Of a DNA stretch of 32,000 nt, positions 7,501-29,732 are shown piece by piece (the stretch's first letter is position 1; the number at the start of each line of letters is the position of its first letter). This stretch comes from Nostoc punctiforme PCC 73102. Its GTDB lineage: Bacteria > Cyanobacteriota > Cyanobacteriia > Cyanobacteriales > Nostocaceae. Position numbers and translations under genes: made by a program. Location of the stretch: positions 3,330,001 through 3,362,000 of the forward strand of contig NC_010628.1 in NCBI RefSeq assembly GCF_000020025.1. The letters run 5' to 3'. The notes below the pieces were generated by a model. The model worked only from the letters and a program-made list of their open reading frames with translations, was not told the DNA's origin and did no database searches.

Positions 7501-8141
7501 CCGACATGACCGGGTTTGAATTGATCGAGCAGATTAAGCTTCTACCTCACGGCAAAACATTGCCCATCATTGTCTACACCGGTAGAGACATTAGCAAAGC
7601 TCAAGAAACTGAATTGAGACGGATTGCCGAAACAATTATCATTAAAGATGTGCGATCGCCCGAACGTCTCCTCGATGAAACAGCATTATTTTTACACCGA
7701 GTCCAAGCAAATTTACCTGCACCCAAACGACAAATACTTGAACAATTGCATTCCATAGATTACTTACTCGCTGGCAAGAAAGCGCTAATTGTAGACGACG
7801 ATGTGCGTAATATTTTCGCGCTGACAAGTATGCTGGAGCGTTATCAAATACAAGTGTTATACGCTGAAAATGGCAGAGAGGGGATTAACGTATTAGAAAA
7901 TACACCAGATATTGATGTCGTTTTGATGGATGTAATGATGCCAGAAATGGACGGTTACGAAACAACAAGCTTAATCCGCCAAAACGAGCAATTTAAATCT
8001 TTGCCGATTATTGCACTGACAGCTAAAGCCATGCAAGGCGATCGCGAGAAGTGTATTGAAGCGGGTGCATCAGACTACATCACCAAACCCGTAGATACTG
8101 AACAACTGCTTTCACTCTTGCGTGTTTGGCTATACCGTTAA
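1545..8141 (+). CDS. Soluble hybrid sensor histidine kinase: poly-HAMP array, GAF, coiled coil, HisKA, HATPase_c and three receiver domains
   Basis: This is a 2198-aa ORF with no N-terminal hydrophobic segments. HAMP-like heptad units repeat from aa ~18 to ~1250. A GAF-like block starts near nt 5346. A Q/E/L-rich coiled coil spans ~5830-6120. The H-box is SHELRTPLN (His codon 6156-6158). The ATP-lid motifs are DTGIGI and GGTGLGLSI. Three REC domains carry conserved Asp contexts: [11 protein letters not shown] (~7122), [11 protein letters not shown] (~7490) and [11 protein letters not shown] (~7927). Confidence 0.95.
1989..5300 (+). repeat. Twelve exactly phased 276-nt (92-codon) tandem units inside the kinase gene, each encoding two HAMP domains
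   Basis: The landmark atggt(g/a)gatc recurs at 1989, 2265, 2541, 2817, 3093, 3369, 3645, 3921, 4197, 4473 and 4749. Diverged copies sit at 5025 and 5301. All are spaced 276 nt apart. Positions 3201-3295 and 3477-3571 are identical over 95 nt. Confidence 0.95.
6870..6911 (+). repeat. Six tandem heptamers (CTCCCTA x3, then CTTCCCA, CTCTCCA, CTCCTCA) inside the kinase CDS linker
   Basis: Read directly from the sequence. The 42 nt equal 14 codons and encode [14 protein letters not shown], between HATPase_c and the first receiver. Confidence 0.85.
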
Positions 8142-8172: not shown

Positions 8173-11100
8173 ATTTCAACCCTAATAGGGATTTTGATGA
8201 ATTGCAATTCCTCCTTCCTCTGGCTCTGCCACCGTTCAGCAACTTGGTTTCAATCCCTGATAGGGATTTTGATGAATTGCAATATATTATTTCACAACTG
8301 GTAAAAACGCTAAAGGTTTAGTTTCAATCCCTGATAGGGATTTTGATGAATTGCAATGTTAAACTGGTCTGCTTTGCCGATACCCAAATATTGCTAGGTT
8401 TCAATCCCTGATAGGGATTTTGATGAATTGCAATGAAATCAGAAACATCTTTGATTTTTTTGACCATGTTTCAATCCCTGATAGGGATTTTGATGAATTG
8501 CAATTTTTTGGGGAAGAGGTAATCTGAAACAGAATTTAGTATTTGTTTCAATCCCTGATAGGGATTTTGATGAATTGCAATGTTGTTACTTAATCCGTCA
8601 AATAGTCCCATTAGATGTTTCAATCCCTGATAGGGATTTTGATGAATTGCAATTTTGTGTTACTTGAATTACTTTGTTGTAATATGCTGGTTTCAATCCC
8701 TGATAGGGATTTTGATGAATTGCAATCAGCAACGTATGCTGTGGGATGCTGGATATGCACGTTTCAATCCCTGATAGGGATTTTGATGAATTGCAATTTG
8801 CATATCTCCATCCAACTGTATTCAGCTGAAAAGTTTCAATCCCTGATAGGGATTTTGATGAATTGCAATCTTCGGCATAACCATTCTTCCACCTCCAGTA
8901 CCAGTTTCAATCCCTGATAGGGATTTTGATGAATTGCAATATAAACTAAATGCCAGAAAAGATTAGGGTCAATCTGTTTCAATCCCTGATAGGGATTTTG
9001 ATGAATTGCAATTTCTGGTTTGACTTTTTCTATTTTCAAGAGTTGCCAAGTTTCAATCCCTGATAGGGATTTTGATGAATTGCAATAAAAGCCTGGGCTA
9101 AATCAATTCCGTGAACAGTTCCAAGTTTCAATCCCTGATAGGGATTTTGATGAATTGCAATTTTATTCCGCCCTGGTTTGAATTCTGATGGCACCGTTGT
9201 TTCAATCCCTGATAGGGATTTTGATGAATTGCAATCTAATCCTGGGCAATGTCCGGCGTATTGGCTTCGCGTTTCAATCCCTGATAGGGATTTTGATGAA
9301 TTGCAATTCTCATGAATGCCCTACTTATACATTTTTTCAGGTTTCAATCCCTGATAGGGATTTTGATGAATTGCAATCTTATAGCTTGTGGCAGGGTAGC
9401 CCATGTAGGCTTGTTTCAATCCCTGATAGGGATTTTGATGAATTGCAATAACCAATAAGCCGGACACTGAGAAGGATTGGCGGGTTTCAATCCCTGATAG
9501 GGATTTTGATGAATTGCAATTCCCTTTGATTGCTGCTGTTCCTTTTGCTTCACAAGTTTCAATCCCTGATAGGGATTTTGATGAATTGCAATGCATTGTG
9601 ATTTCCATGCTTGCAGTACTCCATCTGTTTCAATCCCTGATAGGGATTTTGATGAATTGCAATTTATTGCAGATATGATATGTGCAGTCAGGAATATAAT
9701 TAGTTTCAATCCCTGATAGGGATTTTGATGAATTGCAATTCTATTGTTGTTGTTTCAAAGTCCAAAAAAAGCATTAGTTTCAATCCCTGATAGGGATTTT
9801 GATGAATTGCAATTCGCGCAACTTATCCGCCCAAAGCTTTGCAGCCATTTGTTTCAATCCCTGATAGGGATTTTGATGAATTGCAATACTTACTCGCAGT
9901 TGAGTCTGGGGATTATTTCAGTTTCAATCCCTGATAGGGATTTTGATGAATTGCAATTTTTCCATAATTCTTTTGCAAGTATTCCTTCCCTTGGTTTCAA
10001 TCCCTGATAGGGATTTTGATGAATTGCAATCTGAGTTTGTGGTGCTTCCCCGCGAATCTCGACAAATGTTTCAATCCCTGATAGGGATTTTGATGAATTG
10101 CAATGTAAATATGCTGGTATTTGAAGCAAAACTTGAAGGTTTCAATCCCTGATAGGGATTTTGATGAATTGCAATTCTATCAGATAAACTATCAGGAGTA
10201 GGATAGTCAAACTCGTTTCAATCCCTGATAGGGATTTTGATGAATTGCAATGCTCACGATCTGCTCACGTCTCTACAATAAAAGTTTCAATCCCTGATAG
10301 GGATTTTGATGAATTGCAATCTTTCGCTGAATGGGCAGTTAGTCCAGCAGGAAGTGGTTTCAATCCCTGATAGGGATTTTGATGAATTGCAATCTATATG
10401 TTGCGAGGCTATTGTATTGTAGGTTAGAACAAGTTTCAATCCCTGATAGGGATTTTGATGAATTGCAATTCTTGGTTTGAATAATTCCAATGCTTCCAGT
10501 ACCTGTTTCAATCCCTGATAGGGATTTTGATGAATTGCAATTTGGCACTCCCGTAATGGTTCTAAATGCTTTTGTTGTTTCAATCCCTGATAGGGATTTT
10601 GATGAATTGCAATTTTACCGTGCTGCTGATGGCGATCGCGAGTATTTCGATGAGTTTCAATCCCTGATAGGGATTTTGATGAATTGCAATCCTTTCTAGG
10701 GAGCGCCCCTAGTATTATTGCTTGCGGTTTCAATCCCTGATAGGGATTTTGATGAATTGCAATCCTACCGTCGCCCCGGTGGCAAGCCTCTGCGGCGTGG
10801 TTTCAATCCCTGATAGGGATTTTGATGAATTGCAATCCATTTCTGTGCCTCATTTCGTATCTGTTTCCGTAAAGTTTCAATCCCTGATAGGGATTTTGAT
10901 GAATTGCAATTTGCACCATCAATTGTTTGTGATGTTGTTGTGGCGTTTCAATCCCTGATAGGGATTTTGATGAATTGCAATAAAAGACGACTGGGAACAC
11001 AAGCGGACACAGTACGGTTTCAATCCCTGATAGGGATTTTGATGAATTGCAATATGAATCAACAATGATCCGGCGCCATTGAGTATTAAGTTTCAATCCC

Positions 11101-11303: not shown

Positions 11304-12702
11304 TTTAACCCTCTTGTGTCACTATCGCGGTAGTATAATAATGTACAAAGCCTAGAACCAAGACATAAAGCATGGTAGAGCCTCGTTCACCCATAAAAAC
11401 CGTCAAGTTTGTGGATGAATATTGCTTATGGTATAAAAACCTGTTTTCAGATGTTAGGAATTTTGAAGCTTTCAAATATCTACATATAGGATGTATTTCC
11501 GATTTAAAACGGAAAAGTCTACCTGAAATAGCGAAAATTGTCGGGCTAGATAACTATCAAGGACTACATCATTTCTTAACTACACCATCATGGTCAGTAG
11601 AACAGTTAAGAGCTTTGCGATTACAACTAATTTTAGAGGTACTAAAAGGAAGACCAATCATTTTAATTATTGATGAAACAGGAGATAAAAAGAAAGGTAA
11701 TACCACAGATTATGTGAAACGTCAGTACATAGGCAATTTAGGAAAAGTAGAGAATGGCGTTGTGGCAGTCACAGCTTACGGTATGTTCTGTGGAATGACA
11801 TTTCCACTGCTGTTTGAAGTATACAAGCCACGAGAAAAATTAAAGCCAGGAGACAAATATCTTACTAAGCCTCAAATCGGGGCAATGCTAATACGCAAGC
11901 TACAGTTAATGGGATTCAAATTCAACTTGGTACTAGCAGATAGCTTATATGGTGAGAGTAGCACAAATTTTATACCCGTATTAGATGAATTAGATTTAAA
12001 TTATCTAGTAGCAATTCGCTCAAACCATTCTGTAGCATTGCTTAAAGGTCAGTATACTCAATATTTAAACTGGCATAAGTTTAAAAGAGTATTCTCTGAC
12101 TTAAGTAGTGAGAATCGGTTTATTAGAGAAATAATACATGGCAAACGTAGCAATCATAGGTATTGGCAAATTACTACAGACACTCTTAACTTACCTGGAA
12201 ACTCTACCTGGTATGTAATGAGTAAATACCCAGACATTACACCAAGAGAAGTTGGGAATTTCTATGGCTTTAGGACATGGGTTGAGTATGGTTTAAAACA
12301 AAGTAAGAATCAGTTAGGTTGGGCAGATTATCGTTTTACTTGCTATGAAGATATTGAACGGTGGTGGGAGATTATTTGTAGCGCCTACTTAATGGTTAGT
12401 CTTCATTCAGAATCTCTGCGCCCTTATCCCCTAGATTCTCAATCAACATTTGCTTCACATCAGAGGTGGGATAATGGTAAAGGTTGGAAGAATATTCTCA
12501 ATAATCTCCGTCTCATCCTTCAACCTTTTACCCTATTTAATTTAATTCAGCCTTGGCTTTCAGTTTTTCCTATTCCTCATTTATCTTTGGGATTTGCTAA
12601 ACTCCAATCTGTTGTTTATTACCTTACCTATCCTACTTTTATATCCCTGACTGACCCTGATTTCTATTTTTCCTCTGCCTAAAGTGACACAACAGGGTTA
12701 AA
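11304..12702 (+). mobile_element. IS701-family-like insertion sequence (~1.4 kb) inserted in the CRISPR leader
   Basis: The terminal inverted repeats are tttaaccctCttgtgtcact (11304-11323) and agtgacacaaCagggttaaa (12683-12702), matching at 19 of 20 positions. They enclose a single transposase ORF. I could not identify a clean target-site duplication. Confidence 0.8.
11372..12682 (+). CDS. DDE transposase, IS701-family-like
   Basis: The 436-aa ORF has the N-terminal layout typical of IS701/ISAs-type transposases (…SLPEIAKIVGL…LIIDETGDKKKG…YIGNLGKVENGVV…LADSLYG…). The stop codon abuts the right inverted repeat. The family assignment is from memory, not a search. Confidence 0.8.
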   Translation: MVEPRSPIKTVKFVDEYCLWYKNLFSDVRNFEAFKYLHIGCISDLKRKSLPEIAKIVGLDNYQGLHHFLTTPSWSVEQLRALRLQLILEVLKGRPIILIIDETGDKKKGNTTDYVKRQYIGNLGKVENGVVAVTAYGMFCGMTFPLLFEVYKPREKLKPGDKYLTKPQIGAMLIRKLQLMGFKFNLVLADSLYGESSTNFIPVLDELDLNYLVAIRSNHSVALLKGQYTQYLNWHKFKRVFSDLSSENRFIREIIHGKRSNHRYWQITTDTLNLPGNSTWYVMSKYPDITPREVGNFYGFRTWVEYGLKQSKNQLGWADYRFTCYEDIERWWEIICSAYLMVSLHSESLRPYPLDSQSTFASHQRWDNGKGWKNILNNLRLILQPFTLFNLIQPWLSVFPIPHLSLGFAKLQSVVYYLTYPTFISLTDPDFYFSSA

Positions 12703-12858: not shown

Positions 12859-13146
12859 CTAGCCAGAAGGGGACTCAGCAAAGAAAATTGTTTCGTCTCG
12901 TGGCTGTTCTCCACCAATACGTTCGATTTTTCGCTGACAACAGCCACAGAGAAAATAAAAGCGCACGCTATCGGTGTCGGGTTTAATCAATTTGGCTAAA
13001 CGCGATCGCAGTTTAGCATACTGAGTGGGAGTGACATCGCACTCAAATACACTCAGTTGCATCCATTGTCCATAAGACTTAAGAATCGAATGGATTTTAG
13101 TACGACGCTTATCTTCTGGAATGTCGTAGCTGACAACAATATACAT
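12859..13146 (-). CDS. cas2: CRISPR-associated endoribonuclease Cas2
   Basis: 95 aa, MYIVVSYDIPEDKRRTKI…SVFECDV, the typical Cas2 N-terminal beta-strand/Asp motif. It is the last gene of the cas operon, next to the leader. Confidence 0.93.
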   Translation of the reverse strand: MYIVVSYDIPEDKRRTKIHSILKSYGQWMQLSVFECDVTPTQYAKLRSRLAKLIKPDTDSVRFYFLCGCCQRKIERIGGEQPRDETIFFAESPSG

Positions 13147-13185: not shown

Positions 13186-14190
13186 TTATTTGAGAACTAA
13201 GGGGGGATATTTATCGATTTCGTTCATCAGGTATTTAGCCAGTAACCTCGCTTGAATTTCAAAGGATTCTTGGTAGGTGCATTTGTTTCCCATGACTGGA
13301 TGTTTGAACTCCGATAGTTTCTTTTGTTGGTAGGCGCGAAGAAATGTATGCAGTCCTTCTTTAGTTAAAGACACAGCACCACTGAGCGGTTCGGTGGTAA
13401 AGTCAGTTAGGGTTAGCGATCGCTTGTTAATCAGCGACAACACTACAGCATCCACTATTAAAGGACGAAATTCTTCCATCAAGTCCAAAGCTAGGGAAGG
13501 TCTACCATAACGTTCGACGTGTAAGTATCCTAGATAAGGATCGAAGCCAACAATATTTAAAGCACTTTGCACATCATGACGTAGTAATGAATACCCAAAA
13601 CTCAGTAGGGCATTAACCGGATCGGTTGGCGGACGGCGGCGTCTGGCTTCAAATCGGAATTCTGGGGTTTTAATTAACTGTTGAAAGCAACCGAAATAGG
13701 CTGCACTACCAGCACCTTCTAAGCCTCTGAGAGAATCAATACTGCTAGTTTTTTCGATTGGTGCGATCGCGTTTTCCAATCGAGTGATGTTATTATTCAG
13801 GTCAGTATCAGGATGTTCTCGCTGAGTGCGAAGTAAGCTATGGCGGTAATTTTTCAATTTACCCCGTACAAATCCTCTGACTAAATGTATTGCTGGTTGT
13901 GATTCTCCCACAGCTTGCCATTGGGCTTTACGAACAAAGATATTTTTGGTAACTTCTGGTTCTAAACGCCCTAAATATCGTCCGTTTTGTGTGAGAAATG
14001 TTAAGCAGATATGACGTTCTAAAAGTTCACTGACAACGGCGGGAGAAATAGTAGCCCGCCCTAATACTACAATCCCTTCTAGTTTAATTAAAGGGATATC
14101 CATGATAGTTTTTTGTTCAGATTTGACGGTGAGACGTTCATCAACTTTGCCGATAAAAGCATCGGCTTGTGTTACGTAAAGTGTTCCCAT
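13186..14190 (-). CDS. cas1: CRISPR-associated integrase Cas1
   Basis: 334 aa, MGTLYVTQ…GKVDERL… with a C-terminal …LGYLHVERYGRPSLALDLMEEFRP… Cas1 catalytic region. It lies adjacent to cas2 and cas4. Confidence 0.95.
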   Translation of the reverse strand: MGTLYVTQADAFIGKVDERLTVKSEQKTIMDIPLIKLEGIVVLGRATISPAVVSELLERHICLTFLTQNGRYLGRLEPEVTKNIFVRKAQWQAVGESQPAIHLVRGFVRGKLKNYRHSLLRTQREHPDTDLNNNITRLENAIAPIEKTSSIDSLRGLEGAGSAAYFGCFQQLIKTPEFRFEARRRRPPTDPVNALLSFGYSLLRHDVQSALNIVGFDPYLGYLHVERYGRPSLALDLMEEFRPLIVDAVVLSLINKRSLTLTDFTTEPLSGAVSLTKEGLHTFLRAYQQKKLSEFKHPVMGNKCTYQESFEIQARLLAKYLMNEIDKYPPLVLK

Positions 14191-14339
14191 TTTTGATTCT
14201 TCCTAGTAATAATTGGGGCTTCAATGAATAGATTTGTCGGGTATAATTAAATACGGGTTAGCAAGGGTTGTTGGTGTAGATAATTGGTTTTTCAAGGCAC
14301 GATGAATCGCGTCTCTACATGATGGTTTTGGGGTATGGT

Positions 14340-14933
14340 TTAATTTACTTCTTGGTAACTTTTGACTTTATCGGTTGCTTTGGGTAAACATTGCGAATAA
14401 AGACTGCATCCTTGGCAGCGTTTGCTGTAAACTGGTTTTGGCATTGCTCCTGTTTCTAGGAGATTTGTCACAGATTCAATAGTAGCGATCGCACTATTTC
14501 GCAACTCTTGATTAATCTCTACTAATTGCCGTTGATGGGAGTGAGCATAATAGATATATCCAGTAGTAACTGGTTCTCCTGTCATTTCTTCTAAACATAA
14601 GGCTTGGGCACAAACTTGTAACTCATCGTTATCCCATTCGCCTTTGCGTCCCCGTTTGTATTCCACTGGATAAACTTGACCAGATTCTGCTTCAATTAAA
14701 TCAGATTTCCCGATGAGTTTGTATTGCTCAGACTTGAGCCAAATTGCCCGAACTTGCCAAGTTTCTCCTCGCTGTATATCGCTTGTAGTGTGGACGCGAT
14801 CGTGTAAAGTTGTGCCTTCAATTGTGTATTGATTATCAGTAAACTCGCCCGCACAAAACATCCGCCAACAGCGATGCGGACAATAGGCGTATTGATTCAG
14901 CGCCGCAATCGAAATATATTCGGTTTGATTCAT
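14340..14933 (-). CDS. cas4: CRISPR-associated exonuclease Cas4 (RecB-like, Fe-S cluster cysteines)
   Basis: 197 aa with an N-terminal YAYCPHRCW and a C-terminal CQGCSLYSQC. This is the one-plus-three cysteine pattern of Cas4, and a D…EYK nuclease motif is present. Confidence 0.92.
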   Translation of the reverse strand: MNQTEYISIAALNQYAYCPHRCWRMFCAGEFTDNQYTIEGTTLHDRVHTTSDIQRGETWQVRAIWLKSEQYKLIGKSDLIEAESGQVYPVEYKRGRKGEWDNDELQVCAQALCLEEMTGEPVTTGYIYYAHSHQRQLVEINQELRNSAIATIESVTNLLETGAMPKPVYSKRCQGCSLYSQCLPKATDKVKSYQEVN

Positions 14934-14964: not shown

Positions 14965-15810
14965 TTATGGAGAATACATCTGTCGCGTCATTCCCATACC
15001 CATTGTTGTTTTTCTGCCGACACCAGTATATAAAGCAAAGTCAGCTAAAGCGTTAATCTGCTTAATTTGTATTGGTTCAACTGCCCCTAAAATCTTATAG
15101 GTAACTTCGCCAATAATGCCAATAAATTTGCTGCGGGAATCAGCTAATATTTCTGTGTGAATATTGACAAATGAGGGAAAGATTGACTCGATCGCAATCT
15201 GAGAAAATTCTATCCCACTGTATTTATTCCACCGCGAAAGTAGGGAATTAAAGACAGATTCTCTGGTAGGAAGGGTAGTGTCATACTGTCCTTGACGGAA
15301 GGCGGTAGGCGTGGAAAAAGTAAGGTTAATGGAAGAATTACCATCGCTAGCTTCTTCGTATAATTGAGCATAAGTATTAGCATTTGCCCAAGGTTGAATA
15401 GATTGGGGTGTGCCTTGAATGCTGGTAATATACAAGTCAGCCGGGCCAAGATGCCAAGGGCGATTGGGATTAAGATTTAGCCAGAGTTGGGTAAGTTTGC
15501 CAAATAAAGTGTCATCTAATAGAGAGATGCGCCACCAACAAGGAGTTCCGGCGGGAATGGGTTGTTGATGTGAGTATTGCAATTTAGATCCCCCCTTACC
15601 ACCCTTCAAAAGGGGAGAGTTTGTATTACTAATTTGTAGAGGTGAGAGGGTGAAAGCTTTATCAGCAGTGGAATCGTGTAAGCGATCGCCCAATGTGCTA
15701 TCTACAGAACTAACAAGGGTTAAAAATAGGGCGTGGAGATGTCTACCTGTAAGATATTGTGGTGGAATGGGCGATTGAGGTAGCAAATTCAACACTAAAC
15801 TATGAGGCAT
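14965..15810 (-). CDS. cas6: CRISPR repeat endoribonuclease Cas6
   Basis: 281 aa with the C-terminal glycine-rich loop GVGRKTTMGMGM typical of Cas6. Its position in a type I-D operon fits. The ATG overlaps the upstream ORF stop by 11 nt. Confidence 0.9.
   Translation of the reverse strand: MPHSLVLNLLPQSPIPPQYLTGRHLHALFLTLVSSVDSTLGDRLHDSTADKAFTLSPLQISNTNSPLLKGGKGGSKLQYSHQQPIPAGTPCWWRISLLDDTLFGKLTQLWLNLNPNRPWHLGPADLYITSIQGTPQSIQPWANANTYAQLYEEASDGNSSINLTFSTPTAFRQGQYDTTLPTRESVFNSLLSRWNKYSGIEFSQIAIESIFPSFVNIHTEILADSRSKFIGIIGEVTYKILGAVEPIQIKQINALADFALYTGVGRKTTMGMGMTRQMYSP
15583..15623. repeat. 41-nt small dispersed repeat copy embedded in frame in cas6
   Basis: tttagatccccccttaccacccttcaaaaggggagagtttg aligns end to end with the intergenic unit at 200-240. 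On the coding strand it contributes the Gly/Lys-rich segment …NSPLLKGGKGGSKLQ… of Cas6. Confidence 0.65.
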
Positions 15811-16420
15811 ACTTTCTCTTTTTGGTTGTAGACTGAGTGCTTCTTGACTCTACAGTAAACTCAGGGATTTCCTGGAGTTCAGCATCACTCAAACTATACT
15901 GTTCACAAACGAGACTTAGGCGATTTCCTGGGGTTTTGACAGCGTTAACCGAATGGGTTAAATCACCTTGAAAATAAACTAAAGTATTGAATTGGGGCTT
16001 AATTTGCCCAAGTTGGCGCTTGTGCGATCGCAATACCAGTTCTCCCCCTTCCATATCCGCAGGTACGCGCACATAAAGCACGCTGACAACCGCAGGCGGT
16101 TCAATGGTTTTGGAGTAGGAACGTAAGGAGCGATCAATATGCGGATCGACGCGGGAGCCTTCTTTTAGCTGTAAAGGATTGAGGTAAAAAGCATTACAGT
16201 TAGGCTGGAGAGCCAAATCTAGGTAAAGCTTGAAGTAGGGAAACTGCTGTTCTACCTTTGCTAATCCAGAACGCTGAAATACTACAGAAAATCCTTTAGT
16301 GGCGACAAAATCGCGGTTGAGGTTGTTGATAGCAAAGTAAGGACAAGCTTGGATTTCTCCCCACAAGTTGTTTAGGTAATCGCTGGGGAAGGCGTTGGTT
16401 TGTTGTTGATAGTGTTTCAC
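15800..16420 (-). CDS. 2OG-Fe(II) oxygenase superfamily protein (prolyl-4-hydroxylase-like fold) embedded in the cas operon
   Basis: 206 aa with a GTG start. It carries an HxD…H…RxS pattern: DPHIDRS, then EGGELVL, then DLTHSVNAV, then GNRLSLV, at the spacing expected for the double-stranded beta-helix facial triad and the 2OG-binding Arg. The tail is basic (TTKKRKYAS). The stop overlaps the cas6 start (ATGCCTCATAG). Confidence 0.7.
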   Translation of the reverse strand: MKHYQQQTNAFPSDYLNNLWGEIQACPYFAINNLNRDFVATKGFSVVFQRSGLAKVEQQFPYFKLYLDLALQPNCNAFYLNPLQLKEGSRVDPHIDRSLRSYSKTIEPPAVVSVLYVRVPADMEGGELVLRSHKRQLGQIKPQFNTLVYFQGDLTHSVNAVKTPGNRLSLVCEQYSLSDAELQEIPEFTVESRSTQSTTKKRKYAS

Positions 16421-16461
16421 TGGGGATGTGAAAGAAATATACTTATAAATCGATGTTCTAC

Positions 16462-16490
16462 AAATTCTCGCACCAATGGCGCGAGAATTT
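16462..16490 (-). other. Intercistronic stem-loop between cas3' and the oxygenase gene
   Basis: A perfect 10-bp stem aaattctcgc / gcgagaattt with a 9-nt loop. It lies 7 nt downstream of the cas3' stop and 42 nt upstream of the GTG start. It has no strong U-tract. Confidence 0.6.
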
Positions 16491-16496
16491 AATTAC

Positions 16497-18776
16497 TTAT
16501 CCTGCAATAAAAACCTCATCATCTGGAAGACGTAATTGTTTAAACTTCATTGCCATTGTTAAAATTCCCGACAAGCCTGTAAAAAATCTATATTCTTTCT
16601 CCATATCATTACAAACAATGGTTATTGGATAAGAAATAATTCCTTGCTTGTTTAATTGGAAAATAACAGCAGCATTTGTTCTGGGGCAAATAATCACTCC
16701 TGGTAACAGATGTTTATTTAAAGCTTGTATTAAAGGTGTTGGTCGTATTGCTCCTCCAGCAGTGCGAATAATTTGGCAATTCTTAAAAGCTGTTAGTTTA
16801 TTCAGTTCTGTACTGATAAATTCTTGCCAGTTATCAGTATAACGTAATCGAAAACTCAATTGATAAGTTTCAGTAGCGCGACTGGTGACTTCAATGTAAT
16901 CACCATTTTGAACAAATTCGTAATAGCGTAATAGGTGAAAAGGATCTAGTTTTGTTTCTTCAGATTCATCTATAATAAAACCATGAGGGTCACGAATGGA
17001 AAGACTTTCAAACAGACTAGAGCGAAAACTAAATAAAGGTGCATAGCTTGTACTAAAAACTTCAGCAAATTCTTTTAACTCAGCTAGTACATCTTCATCT
17101 TTTTGAAATAAATCTACGTATTCGTCTAAAGTTGTACGTCCTGCTTGTAAGTCATCCCAATCTTCAGGAAATTTAGCTTTGATAAAAGTTCTGACAAAAG
17201 CCTGACCACCTTTGATATACTTCCAATCCTTTTTGATTTCTTTGGGAGTTTTTTTTGCAATAGTTTCAGCACCTCGCAAAAGTTTCATTCTATAGCGATA
17301 ATCATCCCAAGTTCTATTTCCTTCAAAAATAGATTTTAGAGTATTGAATAACTCCAAAATCAATTTTTCCTCAGCTAAACCTTCAAGCATTTCTTCCAAT
17401 TCCAATAAGGGACGGGCAATTTCTAGAAATGCTTCTGAACGCCAGTAAGCTTTTAAAAAAGGCTTATTTAAAGAGGGAAGTGTTTCAAGTAAGTCTTTTA
17501 GCGCTGTACGTCCCTCAATAGTATCTAGAGAAGTTAAACCTTCATTCCAGGTGTTAGCAGGTAAGTAAGCAATGGCTTCTGAATCAATATTAGTTTCAGA
17601 TTTACCCAAAACACGCCCTACTCTACCAATTCTCTGCCAAAATGCGGCGCGATCGCGTGCTGAAAAAATCAACCAATCTAAATTTTGCCGTTTCGGTTCA
17701 GGATGTCTTTCAAAGTTAAATCCTACATCTACTGTGCTAGTAGCCAAGATGATTTGACATTGCATAGCCCTTTGTCTATCTTGTTTCGGTGCAGGGCCTG
17801 TAATGCGTCCGATGTAATTACTAAGTCCTTGCTGTCGCAATAAATCTGATAGACGATTAATATTATCAAGAGAATCAAGAATTACAGCACCATTTTCATC
17901 AGGTTTTTCTAGAAAACGTTGGATAACTTCTGCTGCTAACTCTGCTAACCACTCTTCCTTACTATCTGGTTTTGGTCTTAATTCCAGATTAACTGCTGTT
18001 TGTGACGGTAAAAGATTAGTATTACCTGATTCTCCATCAATTATTGCTATTTTTACACCAGCTTGTTTTAAATTCTGCAATGCTAATTCACAAGCTGGTT
18101 CTGGTGTTGCTGTGAGTAAAACTACCTTGCGTCCATTTTCAAAAAACCGAAAAATATGAGAATAGGCAAGATAAAACAGCATTCCTACTAACTGTTTAGC
18201 ATCGTAGAGGTGAAATTCATCAAAAATGACTGTCGAAAATTTGGTGTAAAAACCAGCAGCAATATTACCTCTATCCAGATTATTATATGCAAAGAAAGTT
18301 GCATAGTAAAAAATATAAGGATTTGTTACCAATAGAATTGGTGTATTCGCCCCAACATCATCGAAAACTGTAGCAGGATTTCGCAAAACATTATATAGCT
18401 TTTCTCCTGAACGACGACCAACTTTATCGTCAGGCCAGCTTTTAATATCTTTAGCTGAGGCTGATTTCACAACATGAGGTAAGTTAGCATCACGAACAAA
18501 CTGTTTTGCTGCTTCTGTTTGCTGTTCAATTAAAGCATTAGTGGGAGCAATGTAAACAGCACTGTTATTCGGCTGATGTTTTAATACTGCTAATCCTGCT
18601 TTAGTTTTACCTGTGCCAGTTGGTGCTAAATCAAGGATAATATCTGCATCCTTAGATTGTTCAAATACATCTAGTTGGTGTTGAAGTGCATTCTTTATGA
18701 AAGATATTTTATCTGGTGATGCACAAGCTGAAATACTACGGGGTTCTAATCTGATAACTAAGTTTTGATTACTCAT
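16497..18776 (-). CDS. cas3: Cas3' helicase (DEAD/DEAH-box SF2, no HD domain)
   Basis: Walker A is LAPTGTGKTKAG and motif II is VIFDEFHLYD. The helicase C-terminal region reads …QRIGRVGR…. The preferred start is ATG 18776-18774 (MSNQNLVIRLEP…), which overlaps the csc1 stop as ATGAGTAA. The ORF-track start at 18818 lies inside csc1. Confidence 0.9.
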   Translation of the reverse strand: MSNQNLVIRLEPRSISACASPDKISFIKNALQHQLDVFEQSKDADIILDLAPTGTGKTKAGLAVLKHQPNNSAVYIAPTNALIEQQTEAAKQFVRDANLPHVVKSASAKDIKSWPDDKVGRRSGEKLYNVLRNPATVFDDVGANTPILLVTNPYIFYYATFFAYNNLDRGNIAAGFYTKFSTVIFDEFHLYDAKQLVGMLFYLAYSHIFRFFENGRKVVLLTATPEPACELALQNLKQAGVKIAIIDGESGNTNLLPSQTAVNLELRPKPDSKEEWLAELAAEVIQRFLEKPDENGAVILDSLDNINRLSDLLRQQGLSNYIGRITGPAPKQDRQRAMQCQIILATSTVDVGFNFERHPEPKRQNLDWLIFSARDRAAFWQRIGRVGRVLGKSETNIDSEAIAYLPANTWNEGLTSLDTIEGRTALKDLLETLPSLNKPFLKAYWRSEAFLEIARPLLELEEMLEGLAEEKLILELFNTLKSIFEGNRTWDDYRYRMKLLRGAETIAKKTPKEIKKDWKYIKGGQAFVRTFIKAKFPEDWDDLQAGRTTLDEYVDLFQKDEDVLAELKEFAEVFSTSYAPLFSFRSSLFESLSIRDPHGFIIDESEETKLDPFHLLRYYEFVQNGDYIEVTSRATETYQLSFRLRYTDNWQEFISTELNKLTAFKNCQIIRTAGGAIRPTPLIQALNKHLLPGVIICPRTNAAVIFQLNKQGIISYPITIVCNDMEKEYRFFTGLSGILTMAMKFKQLRLPDDEVFIAG

Positions 18777-19527
18777 TGCTACTTTCTCTACCGCAAAAAT
18801 GTAAACCTGCTGGCACAATCATTTCTCCAATTTGCCAAGCAGCACCCCGAAAATGAAGATTTTTAATGATGGGTGCAGGAGGAATAGAAATTAAATCGAA
18901 CGCTAAAGCCTCTATTTGCTGTGGTAAATCAGCAGCATTTAGGTAATGTTGACTTTGATATTCACCTTCTGGTAGTAAAGTCACAGGGAATTCATTCAGC
19001 ACATTCACTTGAACTTTACTCATGAATTTACCAAGGCGAATATAAGTTGGTAATTGGTGATTTCCAAATACCAAAGTTTGAAATTTGTTTCTGCGTTCAA
19101 TCATCCGCAGTCTTCCAGTTTGGGGAAAATTACTTGGTCTAAATGAACTTGGTTTTTTACCTTGGCGTTGTAATGGTAAATCTTCCCGCGCCGTAGCAAC
19201 ACGGTTATTAGTCATTGCATACCAGTAAGCATCAGAAAGAGCATTGAAACGTTCAAATCTGAATGTTACTCTACCTACTGGTGAAGCTGGTAAGATATAA
19301 AAATCTTGCGCTATTGGTTGGAAATCTTCTTTGTAGGTTGGTCGTCCTGTAGCCTGACCTTGGAGGCGATAGGGGGAATTTACTCTACCTAAAGCATAAG
19401 TAAGAGCATAATTCCCAATTACCCCCTCAGTGTAATAGGTATCAGACAACTCCCTAGAGGCAAAAAAGACTGGTTCAAGACAGTATAATTCAACAAGTTT
19501 TGCCTGCTGAAAAGGAATTGTTGACAT
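18769..19527 (-). CDS. csc1: Type I-D Cas5d (Csc1)
   Basis: 252 aa, sited between csc2 and cas3' with tight spacing. The N-terminus …LYCLEPVFFASRELSDTYYTEGVIGNYALTYALG… resembles the Csc1/Cas5 family. The assignment rests on context plus recollection of the family. Confidence 0.8.
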   Translation of the reverse strand: MSTIPFQQAKLVELYCLEPVFFASRELSDTYYTEGVIGNYALTYALGRVNSPYRLQGQATGRPTYKEDFQPIAQDFYILPASPVGRVTFRFERFNALSDAYWYAMTNNRVATAREDLPLQRQGKKPSSFRPSNFPQTGRLRMIERRNKFQTLVFGNHQLPTYIRLGKFMSKVQVNVLNEFPVTLLPEGEYQSQHYLNAADLPQQIEALAFDLISIPPAPIIKNLHFRGAAWQIGEMIVPAGLHFCGRESSNE

Positions 19528-19529
19528 AT

Positions 19530-20558
19530 TTAACTCTCTACTTCAACTGGTGTATTTTTCCCTTTAGCCTTAGCCTTTTTCTTTTCAGTTGCGACGTGAC
19601 GGAAGGGTTCATAAGATTGGGTTAAACGCTTAAGAAAATTATCACGTTCGGCTTCTGACCAATTAGTTTCTACATCAGTCAGTAAATTTGCTAATTCTTC
19701 TTCAGATAGCTGCACAGAAACCCCTCTCTTATTTTTCCAATTAGCAATTACTTGTTTGCTTGCTGTAATTAATTGATTAATATTCAAAGGATGTTCTAAA
19801 GGTTTACCTAATACATCATAAGTAGCTTGTACAAGTTCTAGAGAACTAGGAAGTTCAGTAATACTACCAAATACACCTAATATCTCGTTTTCCATTCGTC
19901 CAACACGACTTGAAACCGCACCATAACGACTTGTGAAAAGAATATTACCGATGATATATCTCAGTTCATCAGCAGTTACATCTTTTAGGGTGACGACATC
20001 CAAAAAATGCACACCTGGTTTAATGTATTCGCTGGTATTCAAGGCTGTTGAGGCGTTACCTTTTTCATCGCGCATTGTGCCATTTTCGTAGATGGCGTTT
20101 ATGGTGCGATCGCCTACAACATCACTAGCAGGTAAAATACTAAAAGCGTCTTCAGTCCAAATACGACTTTTTTGTGCGCCACCTCCACCAGCAGCGAAGC
20201 CGTAAAGGAAACAATCTACACACATTTCACAAGGTGCATTAGTATTTAAAGAACAAAGAGAGCCATCTTTAATATTGGTATATAAAAGTTCATGCGCTCT
20301 TAAATGTTCACGTCCGTAGCGTCTTTCTGGTGCTACTTGTTTGCGCTTAGTCATTACCAAGCGTTGAATTATAGTTTTTTGATTTTCACCCTCTAAACCA
20401 GCTTGTACAAATTCGCTACACATTGGCTCACCTGAACCTTCTGTGCGGAAGATAGTTTCAGAATGGGTTGTTCTTAAAACAACTAAAGTAATAAAACGCC
20501 CTTTAGGGAAGTTTTCATAACTTGCTGCTAGTACTGTAGAAAGTTTTGAAATTGACAT
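19530..20558 (-). CDS. csc2: Type I-D Cas7d (Csc2) backbone subunit
   Basis: 342 aa, directly downstream of cas10d. It has a cysteine cluster CEMCVDCFLYGFAAGGGG and RAMP-like glycine-rich segments. The size and position are typical of Csc2. Confidence 0.82.
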   Translation of the reverse strand: MSISKLSTVLAASYENFPKGRFITLVVLRTTHSETIFRTEGSGEPMCSEFVQAGLEGENQKTIIQRLVMTKRKQVAPERRYGREHLRAHELLYTNIKDGSLCSLNTNAPCEMCVDCFLYGFAAGGGGAQKSRIWTEDAFSILPASDVVGDRTINAIYENGTMRDEKGNASTALNTSEYIKPGVHFLDVVTLKDVTADELRYIIGNILFTSRYGAVSSRVGRMENEILGVFGSITELPSSLELVQATYDVLGKPLEHPLNINQLITASKQVIANWKNKRGVSVQLSEEELANLLTDVETNWSEAERDNFLKRLTQSYEPFRHVATEKKKAKAKGKNTPVEVES

Positions 20559-20575
20559 GATAAACTCCTAATTAT

Positions 20576-21010
20576 TTAAACGGTTGCAGTTGTTTCGACA
20601 GAATCATTTTCAGATTGGCTTTTAAGCTGTTTACGCGCTTCTTCAAGGAAGAATAAATAAGCAGCTTCTAAAGTTTTTTGGTCAGATAAAAACTTTTCAG
20701 GACGTGCTGAATAAACCTCCTCATATAGTTTTCGTAATAGCTCGTAATAACGCTTGACCTGTTCATACTTTGTTGCACCTACGCCATGCTCACGGATACG
20801 GTCTAAGCGAGTATGATATTGCTGTACTAAAGCAGCAAAAATTACATCTAAACCCAAATAAGACTTTTGAGAACGAATAGCAGCTATAAAGGCTGTAAAC
20901 GGTTCTGCTTGAGCAGTTCGTTTAAAAGAACTTCCCCAAATTTTTCCCTCTGCTGCAACTTGAGCAGCTTCTCTAAGATATTTAGTTAAGAGTAAGTTTT
21001 CATCAGGCAT
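20576..21010 (-). CDS. Candidate internally translated small subunit (Cas11d-like), nested in frame in the cas10d 3' end
   Basis: An in-frame ATG at 21010-21008 is preceded by GGAGAGcttt (Shine-Dalgarno-like, ~6 nt spacing). It would give a 144-aa helical C-terminal product (MPDENLLLTKYLREAAQ…). It is called by analogy to reported internal translation of Cas11d. Confidence 0.4.
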   Translation of the reverse strand: MPDENLLLTKYLREAAQVAAEGKIWGSSFKRTAQAEPFTAFIAAIRSQKSYLGLDVIFAALVQQYHTRLDRIREHGVGATKYEQVKRYYELLRKLYEEVYSARPEKFLSDQKTLEAAYLFFLEEARKQLKSQSENDSVETTATV

Positions 21011-23317
21011 AAAGCTCTCCAACAAAGTATTTAACGGTTCACAAATGCGACTCCAAATAACGCTCAAATTTGGTTCGTCTTGTTCTCGCAGAGTCCAACG
21101 TAGCAAGACATAATAAAGTTCAATTGGTCTGACACAAGCACGAGCCAAATCATACAAACAATCATCAGCTTTCTGAATACTTGCAACAGATGTTGCTAGT
21201 TTGCTAATACATTGCAGTCGCTCAATAATTCTTTCTGCACTTAGAGTCTCTCTATTTTCCTTAATTTCTTCTTTCTTAAAACGTTTATACTGACCACTTC
21301 CAAGTAGACGTATAAGTGCAGATGGAATTCCTTCTACTCTTCCAAAAATCCTATCGTCAACTGTATGAGTTGATATTTCTACCTCTAAGTTTCCACTGAG
21401 AGTAAAAGGAAAGCCAATATCTAAAGACAAGGAAATTTCTAAAGCAAGTCTCAGTGATTTTAGTAAAGCTAAAGAATTATTAACATCTCCCCAAAGTAAA
21501 GGAATAATGACAGATGTATGAACAAAATCAGGACGTTTTGGTAATGCTAAACCGACTACTTTGTTAGCTTTAAATTCAAGCTGGTTATCTTTATATAATT
21601 TCAATTCATCAACTGTGACAGTACCTCCCTCAGCATTTGTCGCTGCGAGTTGTTTTAAAAGTTCACGCCAAATTCTCAACAGTTCTGGAGCAGAACCTTT
21701 AGGTAATGCTAAGTGCAAATAAAGGGGGTCTTGTTTTTTAACAGCAGGAAAATTCGCCCCAACTGCCATTAATTGGTAAGCTAAAGCTGCAATTGAATCT
21801 GCTTGCCTTTTCGGTTCAGCACTAATACCACCCGGTAAGCGGTTAGAAAAAGCTTGTACTTTTGTACCAGGAGGCATATTATCTGAAATTAGCTCATCTA
21901 TATCAGTAGAAGTAGAACCTAAAGAGCATCTTTGTCTGGGATTAGCTTCTACATAAGCATTTAAATCATTGCCTCCATTTAACCGAATAGCAAAAGGTAA
22001 ATTTACCATTCGGCTAACGGCTGCAATCATTTCTTCAGATACTTCTGTTTCTTCAGATATTTGTGTACTTTCCTTTCTTAGCTGGAAAGATTCTTGTAGA
22101 GCTTCTTTAATACCCTCAATTCCTTTAACAGCAGCCTTAGCAGCAAATAAAGGTCGCCCATATTGACCATTAAATGGCTCAATAGCAGTGCGCTGAAGTT
22201 CAGAGATACCCGTATGATGAGCGATTTTATCCCAAACTTCTTTAGGGGTTAATCCGGCTTCTCTATAACTGAGGTAAGCTGCCTTTAAACCTTCAGATAT
22301 GGCAAATTCTTCTGCATTACTTACAGGTAATAACTGAAGTTCAGCCGCTTTTATTAGTGCATCTGCACCAGCCGCTTCACCCCACTTAGTTACATCTTTA
22401 GCAATCTTGTCTGATTTATAACCAGCTTTTTTCCTTTCTAAAAGAGCCTCAACATTTACCAATACTTCCTCAATATTTTGTTGGATAGCTTGATGAGAAA
22501 CTTTAATACCATCTTTGGTAGCTCTGACAAGTCTTTCGATATTATTACCAAAAACTTGGTCAATTTTACTTTGCCAAACAGCAGCTATTTCTTTTGTAAA
22601 ATCTATATTTGCTAAAGCTTCCCCTTCAAAAAGTTCGCCATCAGGGAAAATTGCTAAAGGATTTAACCCATATTTTTGTAAAACTTCTTCGCAAGCACCC
22701 AGCAATAGGGCTGTAATATAGCCTTTGTCTTCAGAAATGCTGATTCTAAAAAGGTTACAGCTTCGTCCAAAAGCAACGGTTAATTCTTTTTCCAGTTTGC
22801 GAAAACGTTGTGCATCTGGAATTCCTAAATCAAACAAGTCCGCAGCTGTCAGCATCGCCGCCCAACGTTCAATATTTGGGTCTTCTGGTAAAAACCTTGA
22901 ACCATCGCTGATATTATGGCCTGAATGACGCTCAATTAGCTTTCTAACTAACTCCAAATCATCTTCTGAAACGACAAATGTAAGTACACAAGCTTTTTCA
23001 AGTTGTTCTCGTAAAAATTCCTGATTTCTAGCCAGGGTTTTAACATTGCGTTTTTGGGTATCTAATTTATTCAGGTCATGAACAGCAGTCGCAGCTAGTA
23101 GCAAAGGTCTTTTATCTTCTGGAACTTCTGCTATACGGCTGACTGTCAAAATGAACTGACACGCAGAATCGAGGTGTTCTGCAAGAGTTGTACCCGTTCT
23201 CACACCAGTTTGATGACGATGTGCATGATTTTCGTAAAGCTGGGGGCGAATTTCACTAAAATAAATCTCCTCCAAGGTTTTGGGAGGAGCATTTAAAAGC
23301 CGACTGCGCTTAATCAT
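20576..23317 (-). CDS. cas10d: Type I-D large subunit Cas10d with N-terminal HD nuclease domain
   Basis: 913 aa. The N-terminal HD motifs are …HAHRH…LAEHLDS…AATAVHDLNKLD. An HD domain here, together with an HD-less Cas3' helicase, is the type I-D signature. Confidence 0.88.
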   Translation of the reverse strand: MIKRSRLLNAPPKTLEEIYFSEIRPQLYENHAHRHQTGVRTGTTLAEHLDSACQFILTVSRIAEVPEDKRPLLLAATAVHDLNKLDTQKRNVKTLARNQEFLREQLEKACVLTFVVSEDDLELVRKLIERHSGHNISDGSRFLPEDPNIERWAAMLTAADLFDLGIPDAQRFRKLEKELTVAFGRSCNLFRISISEDKGYITALLLGACEEVLQKYGLNPLAIFPDGELFEGEALANIDFTKEIAAVWQSKIDQVFGNNIERLVRATKDGIKVSHQAIQQNIEEVLVNVEALLERKKAGYKSDKIAKDVTKWGEAAGADALIKAAELQLLPVSNAEEFAISEGLKAAYLSYREAGLTPKEVWDKIAHHTGISELQRTAIEPFNGQYGRPLFAAKAAVKGIEGIKEALQESFQLRKESTQISEETEVSEEMIAAVSRMVNLPFAIRLNGGNDLNAYVEANPRQRCSLGSTSTDIDELISDNMPPGTKVQAFSNRLPGGISAEPKRQADSIAALAYQLMAVGANFPAVKKQDPLYLHLALPKGSAPELLRIWRELLKQLAATNAEGGTVTVDELKLYKDNQLEFKANKVVGLALPKRPDFVHTSVIIPLLWGDVNNSLALLKSLRLALEISLSLDIGFPFTLSGNLEVEISTHTVDDRIFGRVEGIPSALIRLLGSGQYKRFKKEEIKENRETLSAERIIERLQCISKLATSVASIQKADDCLYDLARACVRPIELYYVLLRWTLREQDEPNLSVIWSRICEPLNTLLESFMPDENLLLTKYLREAAQVAAEGKIWGSSFKRTAQAEPFTAFIAAIRSQKSYLGLDVIFAALVQQYHTRLDRIREHGVGATKYEQVKRYYELLRKLYEEVYSARPEKFLSDQKTLEAAYLFFLEEARKQLKSQSENDSVETTATV

Positions 23318-23428: not shown

Positions 23429-23788
23429 TCAAGCCCTATTTTCAGGTGGGCGAATTCTGACTCTATCTAATTCAGCAGTTACAATTGCACCAGAGAATAA
23501 TTCGTCTCTGTAAAGCTGGAGTACCTGCAAACAAACTATTGATTGTTCTTTGGTTGAGAGATTAACTAAGCGCAAGATACCACAGTGAGGATTTCCCCGC
23601 AGAATTGCTAACTCTCCAAAATCTTTATCAAGGGTGACTAAAATCCTACCTTCACGATAGGCGGTTGCTAAAATTTCCTCGTCACCTGGGTCTTTTGGCC
23701 AATCTCCAGACCAAACCACATCATACCCAGTCGTTTGTAAATCGTTACGCACCCTAGCATTAATGCAAGTATCTAGTAGTATTTTCAC
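23429..23788 (-). CDS. DUF5615-family PIN-like (Mut7-C-like) putative toxin
   Basis: 119 aa, MKILLDTCIN…DEEILATAYREGRILVTLDKDFGELA…GILRL. It overlaps the upstream DUF433 gene by 4 nt (ATGA). Confidence 0.8.
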   Translation of the reverse strand: MKILLDTCINARVRNDLQTTGYDVVWSGDWPKDPGDEEILATAYREGRILVTLDKDFGELAILRGNPHCGILRLVNLSTKEQSIVCLQVLQLYRDELFSGAIVTAELDRVRIRPPENRA

Positions 23789-24036
23789 CTTGGAGATTCT
23801 ATCAATAAAGGTTCAATTCGTTCATGACCAACTAACCTTCGTGCATAGATTAAACAAGCTTGCACATCTTCCCGTTCTAACCAGGGATAAGCTTCTAGCA
23901 AAGTTTCAATAGTATCTCCTACTGCTAACATTCCTAAAATATGTTCAACAGCTAGGCGACGACCTCGAATTATCGGTTTACCACCAAAGATTTGGGGGTT
24001 AAATGTGATTCTTTCTAGTAACGTTTGTTCGTTCAT
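23785..24036 (-). CDS. DUF433-domain putative antitoxin
   Basis: 83 aa, …ITFNPQIFGGKPIIRGRRLAVEHILGMLAVGDTIETLLEAYPWLEREDVQACLIYA…, a canonical DUF433 pattern. It is translationally coupled to the DUF5615 gene. Confidence 0.82.
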   Translation of the reverse strand: MNEQTLLERITFNPQIFGGKPIIRGRRLAVEHILGMLAVGDTIETLLEAYPWLEREDVQACLIYARRLVGHERIEPLLIESPR

Positions 24037-28400: not shown

Positions 28401-28430
28401 TAGCAGGGAGCAGAAAAATTATGAATTCTG

Positions 28431-28451
28431 ACTCCTAACTCCTACTCCTGA
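28431..28451. repeat. STRR-like heptamers (ACTCCTA ACTCCTA CTCCTGA) flanked by gaattctg direct repeats
   Basis: Read directly in the 86-bp spacer between the kinase-like and HopA1-like genes. Confidence 0.75.
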
Positions 28452-28486
28452 ATTCTGTTTTTAAAGTTTGAGTTCTAAATGGATTA

Positions 28487-29575: not shown

Positions 29576-29587
29576 TTAATTGAGCAT

Positions 29588-29693
29588 GGGGGCGGGCAGG
29601 GAAAGCAGGGGAGGCAGGAAGACAAGGGGGACAAGGGGGAATTATTGAACAAGTCTCTCTCTTGTCTCCCCCCTCTTCCTTGTCTCCCTTGTC
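29588..29693. terminator. Long imperfect G-rich/C-rich palindrome between convergent genes (candidate bidirectional terminator)
   Basis: gacaagggggacaagg (29621-29636) pairs with ccttgtctcccttgtc (29678-29693) at 15 of 16 positions. There are nested inner pairings (acaag…cttgt, ggggga…tccccc). The G-tracts gggggcgggcagggaaagcagggg lie at 29588-29611. Confidence 0.5.
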
Positions 29694-29732
29694 TCTTCTT
29701 CATGTTCAATGCCCAATTCCCAATTCCCAAAT

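Follow-up and report, generated by a model that had tools for sequence, protein, structure and literature searches.

The closest described relatives of the locus considered here are type I-D CRISPR-Cas systems of other cyanobacteria. The Microcystis I-D system has eight cas genes, and DNA targeting in plant and mammalian cells has been obtained with five of the Cas proteins (PMC7648086). In vitro, and likewise in a cell-free system from E. coli, recombinant Alr1566 (the Cas6 of Anabaena PCC 7120) cuts its repeats (bioRxiv 10.1101/2020.04.14.041012). A 2023 review of type I-D mentions no oxygenase (PMC10212523). The window analysed here is a stretch of 32,000 nt from Nostoc punctiforme PCC 73102 (NC_010628.1, positions 3,330,001–3,362,000; coordinates count from the window start). 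A complete type I-D system is identified on its minus strand with NCBIfam and Pfam, and between cas3′ and cas6 lies a gene for a predicted 2-oxoglutarate (2OG)- and Fe(II)-dependent oxygenase. The Microcystis TiD, Synechocystis pSYSA, UHCC 0302 plasmid and pANA02 loci share Cas10d, Csc2, Csc1, Cas3′, Cas6, Cas4, Cas1 and Cas2 with the window but lack the oxygenase. With confidence only slightly better than even, the oxygenase is read here as a cas-independent hydroxylase held in the I-D locus by descent, because its orthologues often stand alone, it is retained after loss of the cas genes, matched I-D loci are found without it, and Cas proteins alone suffice.

The gene and its immediate downstream neighbour are as follows.
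15800–16420, minus strand: 2OG-Fe(II) oxygenase gene, 206 aa, GTG start (PF13640, PADLOC ‘2OG’, AlphaFold2 model and Foldseek).
14965–15810, minus strand: cas6, type I-D CRISPR RNA (crRNA) endoribonuclease (TIGR01877, E=3e-22).

The oxygenase stop codon (TAG, 15800–15802) and the cas6 start codon (ATG, 15808–15810) give an 11-nt gene overlap. A first-pass annotation of the window had described a 206-aa ORF (open reading frame) between cas3′ and cas6 on the same strand, set in a type I-D locus and tightly joined to cas6 by an 11-nt overlap. The coordinates hold, the neighbours and setting are borne out by NCBIfam, and the overlap by the codon positions. The gene order DUF433-DUF5615-cas10d-csc2-csc1-cas3′-oxygenase-cas6-cas4-cas1 is shared with Anabaena PCC 7120, where the oxygenase is 83–84 % identical. 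By position, the PCC 7120 oxygenase is alr1565, just upstream of cas6 (alr1566). The PCC 7120 locus differs from the window in having a 30-nt gap before cas6 instead of the overlap, and a weaker hairpin downstream of cas3′ (described below).

A scan of a genome collection with a single protein query returned 80 species-level loci at 96–99 % identity, all from Nostoc. The ORF is intact, at 206 aa, in 80/80 of these. Because homologues fall into more than 2000 clusters, all 80 Nostoc ORFs are intact and dN/dS (the ratio of nonsynonymous to synonymous substitution rates) is ~0.07–0.08, sequence conservation marks the ORF as a real gene and not a chance reading frame. GTG is the start codon of 79/80 Nostoc orthologues, and four of five stand-alone orthologues checked from other orders begin with GTG or TTG (Lyngbya PCC 8106 has ATG); these conserved non-ATG starts suggest selection for low translation initiation. 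A non-ATG start and no obvious Shine–Dalgarno sequence might be expected of a decaying passenger or a mis-called ORF without function. However, the unusual starts are themselves conserved in most of the family, and the intact ORFs, a dN/dS of ~0.07, invariant catalytic residues and a confidently predicted fold effectively refute that explanation.

The protein matches Pfam PF13640 (2OG-FeII_Oxy_3) over residues 86–171 with 38.7 bits against a gathering cut-off of 27 (E=2e-9). It carries H94-x-D96, H156 and R167-x-S169, with GGEL at 125–128, and is predicted to adopt the double-stranded beta-helix fold. Among 19 homologues, down to 30 % identity, H94, D96, H156 and R167 are invariant and S169 is present in at least 90 %; in an alignment of 68 homologues all five catalytic residues are invariant, and they are retained in 80/80 Nostoc orthologues. 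H94/D96 and H156 also align with the HxD motif and distal His of PDB 3dkq and PiuC. An SLVCEQY motif following R167 is invariant in both the 19- and 68-homologue alignments and specific to this family. The AlphaFold2 model built from the 68-sequence alignment has a mean predicted local distance difference test score (pLDDT) of 93.2 and a predicted template modelling score of 0.89. Searched against the PDB with Foldseek, it yields 526 matches at E≤0.001, of which the top 50 are exclusively 2OG oxygenases. The leading matches are a Pseudomonas putida prolyl-4-hydroxylase (also crystallised with EF-Tu), a Dictyostelium prolyl hydroxylase, 3dkq, PiuC, PolD, human PHD2 and Tpa1, with template modelling scores of 0.55–0.6 and 12–21 % identity. 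The HxD…H…RxS and GGEL motifs named in the first-pass annotation are thus present and aligned across homologues, and its assignment to the prolyl-hydroxylase-type 2OG-Fe(II) class agrees with Pfam, the model and the fold matches. The basic C-terminal tail that it also described exists (residues 197–206) but is predicted to be disordered (pLDDT <50) and is not conserved outside Nostocales. Motifs and modelled fold place the protein in the prolyl-hydroxylase-like branch of the 2OG-Fe(II) oxygenases, with predicted activity.

P. putida PPHD (EF-Tu), Dictyostelium PhyA, human PHD2 and yeast Tpa1, the best structural matches (Foldseek E-values of 1e-9 to 1e-7), share the triad, the RxS motif and the double-stranded beta-helix core with the oxygenase. 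They differ in being only 12–21 % identical, and the SLVCEQY motif belongs to the cyanobacterial family. By sequence profile the closest solved structures are of YbiX/PiuC (PDB 3dkq, 9ghl, 9qn0-4; NF003975): in a profile search of PDB sequences, PKHD-type hydroxylases score best (3dkq, E=2e-7; PiuC, ~3e-5). Many orthologues carry the name ‘YbiX’ in JGI annotation and some are ‘iron-regulated protein’ in NCBI annotation. The window protein, however, scores only 18.7 and 18.0 bits against the YbiX/PiuC equivalogs NF003975 and NF003974, far below the cut-offs of 180 and 143, so that it is not a member, and it has no TonB-receptor neighbourhood.

Oxidation of nucleic acids in the manner of AlkB, TET or JBP, with crRNA, target DNA or phage DNA as the substrate, had been raised in the first-pass annotation and is highly improbable. 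General membership of the superfamily is compatible with it, and two of the fold neighbours, PolD and PasI, have small molecules derived from nucleosides as their substrates. Against this, the sole Pfam hits at E≤10 are Oxy_3, Oxy_4 and Oxy_5, with no AlkB-type or other nucleic-acid oxygenase family among them; the top 50 Foldseek matches to the PDB, for the most part protein prolyl hydroxylases and PiuC, include no AlkB, TET or JBP structure; and no phage homologues were found. Distant members of the family are fused to FkbM methyltransferase, JmjC, DUF952 or a second oxygenase domain, and to no Cas domain. In Cyanobacterium aponinum, a homologue of 50 % identity belongs to a LanM/Nif11 lanthipeptide cluster that includes six Nif11-type precursor genes. 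It directly precedes a 570-aa protein with another 2OG oxygenase domain, and this setting gives a hint that members of this branch hydroxylate peptides.

Outside Nostocales, profile searches recovered orthologues of 63–76 % identity in Gloeothece, Lyngbya, Leptolyngbya, Microcoleus, Prochlorothrix, Pseudanabaena, Pantanalinema and others. No cas genes lie near the oxygenase in seven genome, metagenome-assembled genome (MAG) or assembly contexts outside the I-D-linked clades: Phormidium ambiguum, Floridanema, a MAG labelled Sericytochromatia, a contig assembled from a public run, Gloeothece PCC 7424, Gloeothece PCC 7822 and Lyngbya PCC 8106. The context in Kalymmatonema, a member of the Nostocales, is also free of cas genes. 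A metagenome scan gave a further 80 loci, in which ‘any cas gene’ was counted only where at least 3 kb was available on both sides.
Metagenome loci of ≤81 % identity: cas6 downstream in 0/49, any cas gene in 0/30.
Metagenome loci of ≥83 % identity (the Nostocales clade): cas6 downstream in 11/13, any cas gene in 10/12.

The family as a whole therefore shows no consistent linkage to cas genes. For the first-pass claim of a CRISPR accessory function, homologues in contexts unrelated to cas would count as refutation, and this is largely what is seen at ≤81 % identity. The possibility that stand-alone orthologues are all relics of former I-D loci gained no support; no N-terminal remnants of cas6 are found downstream of the non-Nostocales copies.

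Within Nostoc, loci were classed by tblastn, and 76 of the 80 had enough downstream sequence. In 13/76 species the adjacent cas6 and other cas genes have been lost while the oxygenase is retained; seven keep only an N-terminal remnant of cas6 and six have no cas gene at all. These cas-less oxygenases adjoin the same flanking genes that border the CRISPR-Cas locus of the window (27159–30515), and no CRISPR array was found in the cas-less Nostoc loci. Judging from the downstream sequences and nearest neighbours, there have been at least seven independent cas deletions. Pairs of oxygenase genes from cas-less loci give a dN/dS of 0.067, pairs from cas-bearing loci 0.075. In two clades that diverged after the loss, only 2–6 of 12–18 nucleotide differences alter the protein. 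Selection on the gene is therefore, as far as substitution patterns can tell, independent of adjacent cas genes. The oxygenase had been expected to show much stronger conservation than the Cas proteins, but the gap within Nostoc is modest and rate alone is not decisive.

Type I-D loci of matching architecture without the oxygenase bear on the same question. Among the listed cyanobacterial plasmids with a related cas6 (11 at 54–66 % identity, others at ~30 %), none carries it. A plasmid of Nostoc UHCC 0302 has the order regulator-csc3-cas7d-cas5d-cas3′-cas6-cas4-cas1d-cas2, its Cas3′ and Cas6 being 80 % and 65 % identical to those of the window, and at the site of the oxygenase there is an AT-rich spacer of 176 nt. 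On pANA02 of Anabaena sp. 90 the order is cas5d-orf139-cas6, with orf139 on the opposite strand; its Nostoc chromosomal counterpart (locus L001) reads csc1-orf136-oxygenase-cas6, with orf136 likewise on the opposite strand. These plasmid loci further weaken the claim of an accessory function, and the oxygenase is not a core or obligatory component of type I-D. The two small genes, orf136 (9485–9895 of L001, minus strand) and orf139 (8477–8896 of the pANA02 locus, minus strand), are 53 % identical and have no Pfam match. In canonical-order I-D loci, csc1/cas5d is separated from cas6 or from the oxygenase by an opposite-strand gene of this kind, which encodes a conserved protein of 136–139 aa and may itself be I-D-linked.

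The family is already catalogued. PADLOC-DB holds it as PDLC01587 ‘2OG’ (‘CAS-I ... CAS-VI; associated’), to which residues 1–194 of the window protein match over 195 positions (E=1.2e-85, 283.8 bits). An ‘undescribed’ accessory, as first claimed, it is not: both the family and its cas association are in public resources, and novelty is low. The ‘Cas-associated’ label fits only part of the family, because 18/18 non-Nostocales orthologues tested match the profile equally (E ~1e-86), several of them verified as stand-alone. No functional study of the PADLOC ‘2OG’ family or of alr1565 was found in the literature. The profile presumably goes back to the work of Shmakov 2018 and Makarova 2020.

Linkage to cas6 is nevertheless extensive within Nostocales. 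Full-length cas6 lies directly downstream of the oxygenase in 63/76 Nostoc loci, with the overlap almost always retained, and the arrangement is kept in many Nostocales, including Anabaena PCC 7120 and Calothrix PCC 7507; the latter has a window-type operon in different chromosomal surroundings. The survey of homologue neighbourhoods proposed in the first-pass annotation thus divides, with cas linkage in most Nostoc species and no cas6 beside the 49 more distant metagenome copies. Upstream of the oxygenase, 14 Nostoc loci have the window order cas10d-csc2-csc1-cas3′, ~40 have another, canonical-order I-D effector module ending in csc1, and the remaining loci have neither. Csc2 and Csc1 of the canonical-order module are only ~36 % and ~28 % identical to those of the window. 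Two I-D effector modules thereby alternate, across Nostoc species, upstream of a shared oxygenase-cas6-cas4-cas1 block. It looks as if the interference genes are exchanged as modules around a fixed anchor, of which the oxygenase-cas6 junction is the stable point.

Several observations weigh against a cas-independent hydroxylase held in place by descent. At least 63 species of Nostoc and several genera of Nostocales, with two different effector architectures, have the oxygenase directly upstream of cas6. A Microcoleaceae MAG has the order WYL-cas3′-x-cas10d-csc2-csc1-oxygenase-cas6-cas4-cas1-cas2; compared with the window, its oxygenase is 71 % and its cas6 58 % identical, its cas4 and cas1 38–39 % and its effector genes 25–33 %, which makes the oxygenase and cas6 the pair with the highest conservation. 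The sister of this orthologue, in an Elainella MAG, has a CRISPR array ~290 nt downstream, with at least seven repeats of GTTCAAATTGCCTCGAAACCCTTTCAGGGATTGAAAC and reaching the contig end (9875–10345 of the Elainella locus). No cas genes were present in the 9 kb upstream of the Elainella oxygenase. Elainella is the only stand-alone copy found beside a CRISPR array, as two other repeat hits (loci L093 and L150) are not CRISPR. Recurrent adjacency of the oxygenase to cas6 or CRISPR exceeds what a single accident predicts. Within Nostoc, dN/dS is 0.083 for the oxygenase against 0.10–0.12 for Cas6, Cas4 and Cas1, a modest gap. Further CRISPR-Cas loci may exist in the cas-less genomes, and the oxygenase could act on these in trans. 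Finally, the putative role as a protein hydroxylase is drawn solely from modelled-fold neighbours of 13–21 % identity.

These observations could be accommodated if the oxygenase were, at least in Nostocales, an accessory or regulatory gene of type I-D, hydroxylating a host factor, Cas6 or some other Cas subunit and so adjusting crRNA processing or adaptation, or, as lead cistron, tying expression of cas6-cas4-cas1-cas2 to O2, Fe or 2OG status; 2OG is the signal of carbon/nitrogen balance in cyanobacteria. The 11-nt overlap, present in most Nostoc and persisting through swaps of the two effector architectures, the same operon in the different surroundings of Calothrix PCC 7507, the linkage in the distant Microcoleaceae MAG, the array next to the Elainella copy and the PADLOC listing are all as such a role would have it. 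Yet most non-Nostocales orthologues stand alone, selection is unchanged once cas genes are lost, matched I-D loci do without the oxygenase, Cas6 is active alone and heterologous I-D systems function without it, and the 2023 review is silent on such a component. An accessory role is for these reasons rather unlikely.

A broader version, in which the family is a CRISPR-related factor across cyanobacteria and acts in trans on any CRISPR-Cas locus of the genome, is very unlikely. On this reading, stand-alone copies and those remaining where the local cas genes were lost would continue to function in immunity. In its favour, the named matches listed include no marine picocyanobacterial homologue, and marine picocyanobacteria are not known to carry CRISPR-Cas; occasional adjacency to CRISPR or cas is also seen outside Nostocales, in the Microcoleaceae and Elainella MAGs. 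The picocyanobacterial absence, however, is limited to the matches listed and concerns lineages that have shed many genes, and neither the fusions of distant members nor the lanthipeptide cluster gives a link to Cas.

Two elements at the upstream end of the oxygenase are relevant to its transcription.
16461–16491, minus strand: stem-loop of 14 bp, 6 nt past the cas3′ stop, between cas3′ and the oxygenase (fold energy).
16424–16449, minus strand: proximal upstream motif TTTATAAGTATATTTCTTTCACATCC, 26 nt long, just ahead of the GTG (kept in cas-less loci).

The hairpin has a predicted fold energy of −24.1 kcal/mol (z=−4.2), and 0/200 shuffled sequences were as stable. It is kept in window-type Nostoc loci and in Calothrix PCC 7507. 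Its form is like that of an intrinsic terminator whose U tail (UUUGUAG) is weak; a simple promoter and terminator scan near the oxygenase gave nothing above chance, the hairpin going uncalled as its tail has only 4 T. The motif TTTATAAGTATATTTCTTTCACATCC stays with the oxygenase in the cas-less loci L041, L054, L058 and L059, farther upstream of which the sequence is unrelated, and is a candidate −10 region and short leader for the gene. In the L001-type arrangement, csc1 is set apart from the oxygenase by an opposite-strand gene, leaving a divergent intergenic region of ~105 nt, and the L001 upstream sequence recurs in many canonical-order Nostoc loci. Because of the hairpin after cas3′, the retained proximal motif and the opposite-strand gene upstream, the oxygenase more likely heads a cas6-cas4-cas1-cas2 unit than ends the effector operon. 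The same three features make doubtful the first-pass view that it is expressed as part of the operon with no regulation of its own.

The remaining cas genes and neighbouring features of the window are listed below.
1545–8141, plus strand: hybrid sensor kinase of 2198 aa, with 12–13 tandem HAMP domains followed by GAF, HisKA, HATPase and three receiver domains.
~8466–10910, minus strand: CRISPR array with the 37-nt repeat GTTTCAATCCCTGATAGGGATTTTGATGAATTGCAAT (plus-strand reading; Tandem Repeats Finder).
11372–12682, plus strand: IS701-family transposase gene, between cas2 and the CRISPR array (NF033540, E=8.5e-73).
12859–13146, minus strand: cas2 (PF09827, E=5e-28).
13186–14190, minus strand: cas1d (TIGR04093, E=8e-137).
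14340–14933, minus strand: cas4 (TIGR00372, E=7e-52).
16497–18818, minus strand: cas3′, type I-D helicase (TIGR03158, E=3e-130).
18769–19527, minus strand: csc1 (cas5d) (TIGR03159, E=6e-85).
19530–20558, minus strand: csc2 (cas7d) (TIGR03157, E=9e-118).
20576–23317, minus strand: cas10d (csc3) (TIGR03174, E=5e-7, a weak match below the cut-off; assigned also from position and relatives).
23429–24036, minus strand: DUF433/DUF5615 pair, toxin-antitoxin-like, just upstream of cas10d.
27159–29575, plus strand: genes for an APH-like kinase and, after it, a HopA1-family protein (Pfam, E=1e-60).

The window cas10d is 90–94 % identical to the equivalent gene of related Nostoc loci, and its syntenic counterpart on the UHCC 0302 plasmid bears the annotation Csc3. 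The listed cas3′ ORF begins at a TTG. Alignment to the plasmid homologue begins only at M15, which makes the ATG at 18776 the probable true start and would leave a shorter overlap with csc1 than the ORF list implies. The IS701 gene probably cuts off the adaptation genes from the array or from its leader; an insertion sequence is present in PCC 7120 too, located between cas1 and cas2 (13620–14513 of the PCC 7120 locus). Also upstream of cas10d is a divergent WYL regulator. The DUF433/DUF5615 pair, in which DUF5615 weakly resembles a Mut7-C RNase, is found upstream of cas10d in PCC 7120 as well, and a similar pair adjoins the stand-alone oxygenase of Gloeothece PCC 7424. Its recurrence beside the oxygenase may be coincidence, as such pairs are common in cyanobacteria. 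The pair of genes for the APH-like kinase and HopA1-family protein adjoins the locus in many Nostoc species, including those without CRISPR-Cas genes. The HAMP region of the sensor kinase consists of a 276-nt unit repeated ~10.6 times.

If the oxygenase is indeed a cas-independent hydroxylase, it would be the Nostoc orthologue of a ~200-aa protein found across cyanobacterial orders, an Fe(II)/2OG-dependent enzyme with a fold like those of prolyl-4-hydroxylases and prolyl hydroxylase domain proteins, whose main task would not depend on the cas genes beside it. If it resembles its closest structural relatives in this respect, its substrate would most likely be a conserved protein or peptide of the cell. 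The gene would have become fixed, in Nostocales and now and then in other groups, in a chromosomal I-D locus between an exchangeable effector module and cas6-cas4-cas1-cas2, where it is probably the first, promoter-proximal cistron of the cas6/adaptation unit. Descent and the tight junction with cas6 would preserve the arrangement, and the enzyme would be dispensable for type I-D crRNA processing and interference. A new, operon-integrated CRISPR accessory function, as the first-pass annotation proposed, is weakened on several independent lines, and the oxygenase is probably not an essential part of CRISPR immunity.

Recruitment of the Nostocales oxygenase as a type I-D accessory in a more specific sense can be proposed only tentatively and is unlikely. 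As a lead cistron in translational contact with cas6, it would hydroxylate Cas6 or a different partner, or simply couple expression, so that crRNA processing and spacer acquisition follow O2, Fe or 2OG (nitrogen) status. If true, this would be a previously undescribed metabolic input into CRISPR immunity, and an oxygenase that modulates I-D would be the first protein-modifying enzyme dependent on O2 and 2OG to be tied to CRISPR. The evidence points instead to a conserved host gene that was fixed in a defence operon and then catalogued as ‘Cas-associated’ through neighbourhood statistics to which one well-sampled clade contributes most, a caution for guilt-by-association screens. What remains of interest is a strongly conserved, uncharacterised cyanobacterial hydroxylase with an SLVCEQY motif, curiously anchored beside cas6.

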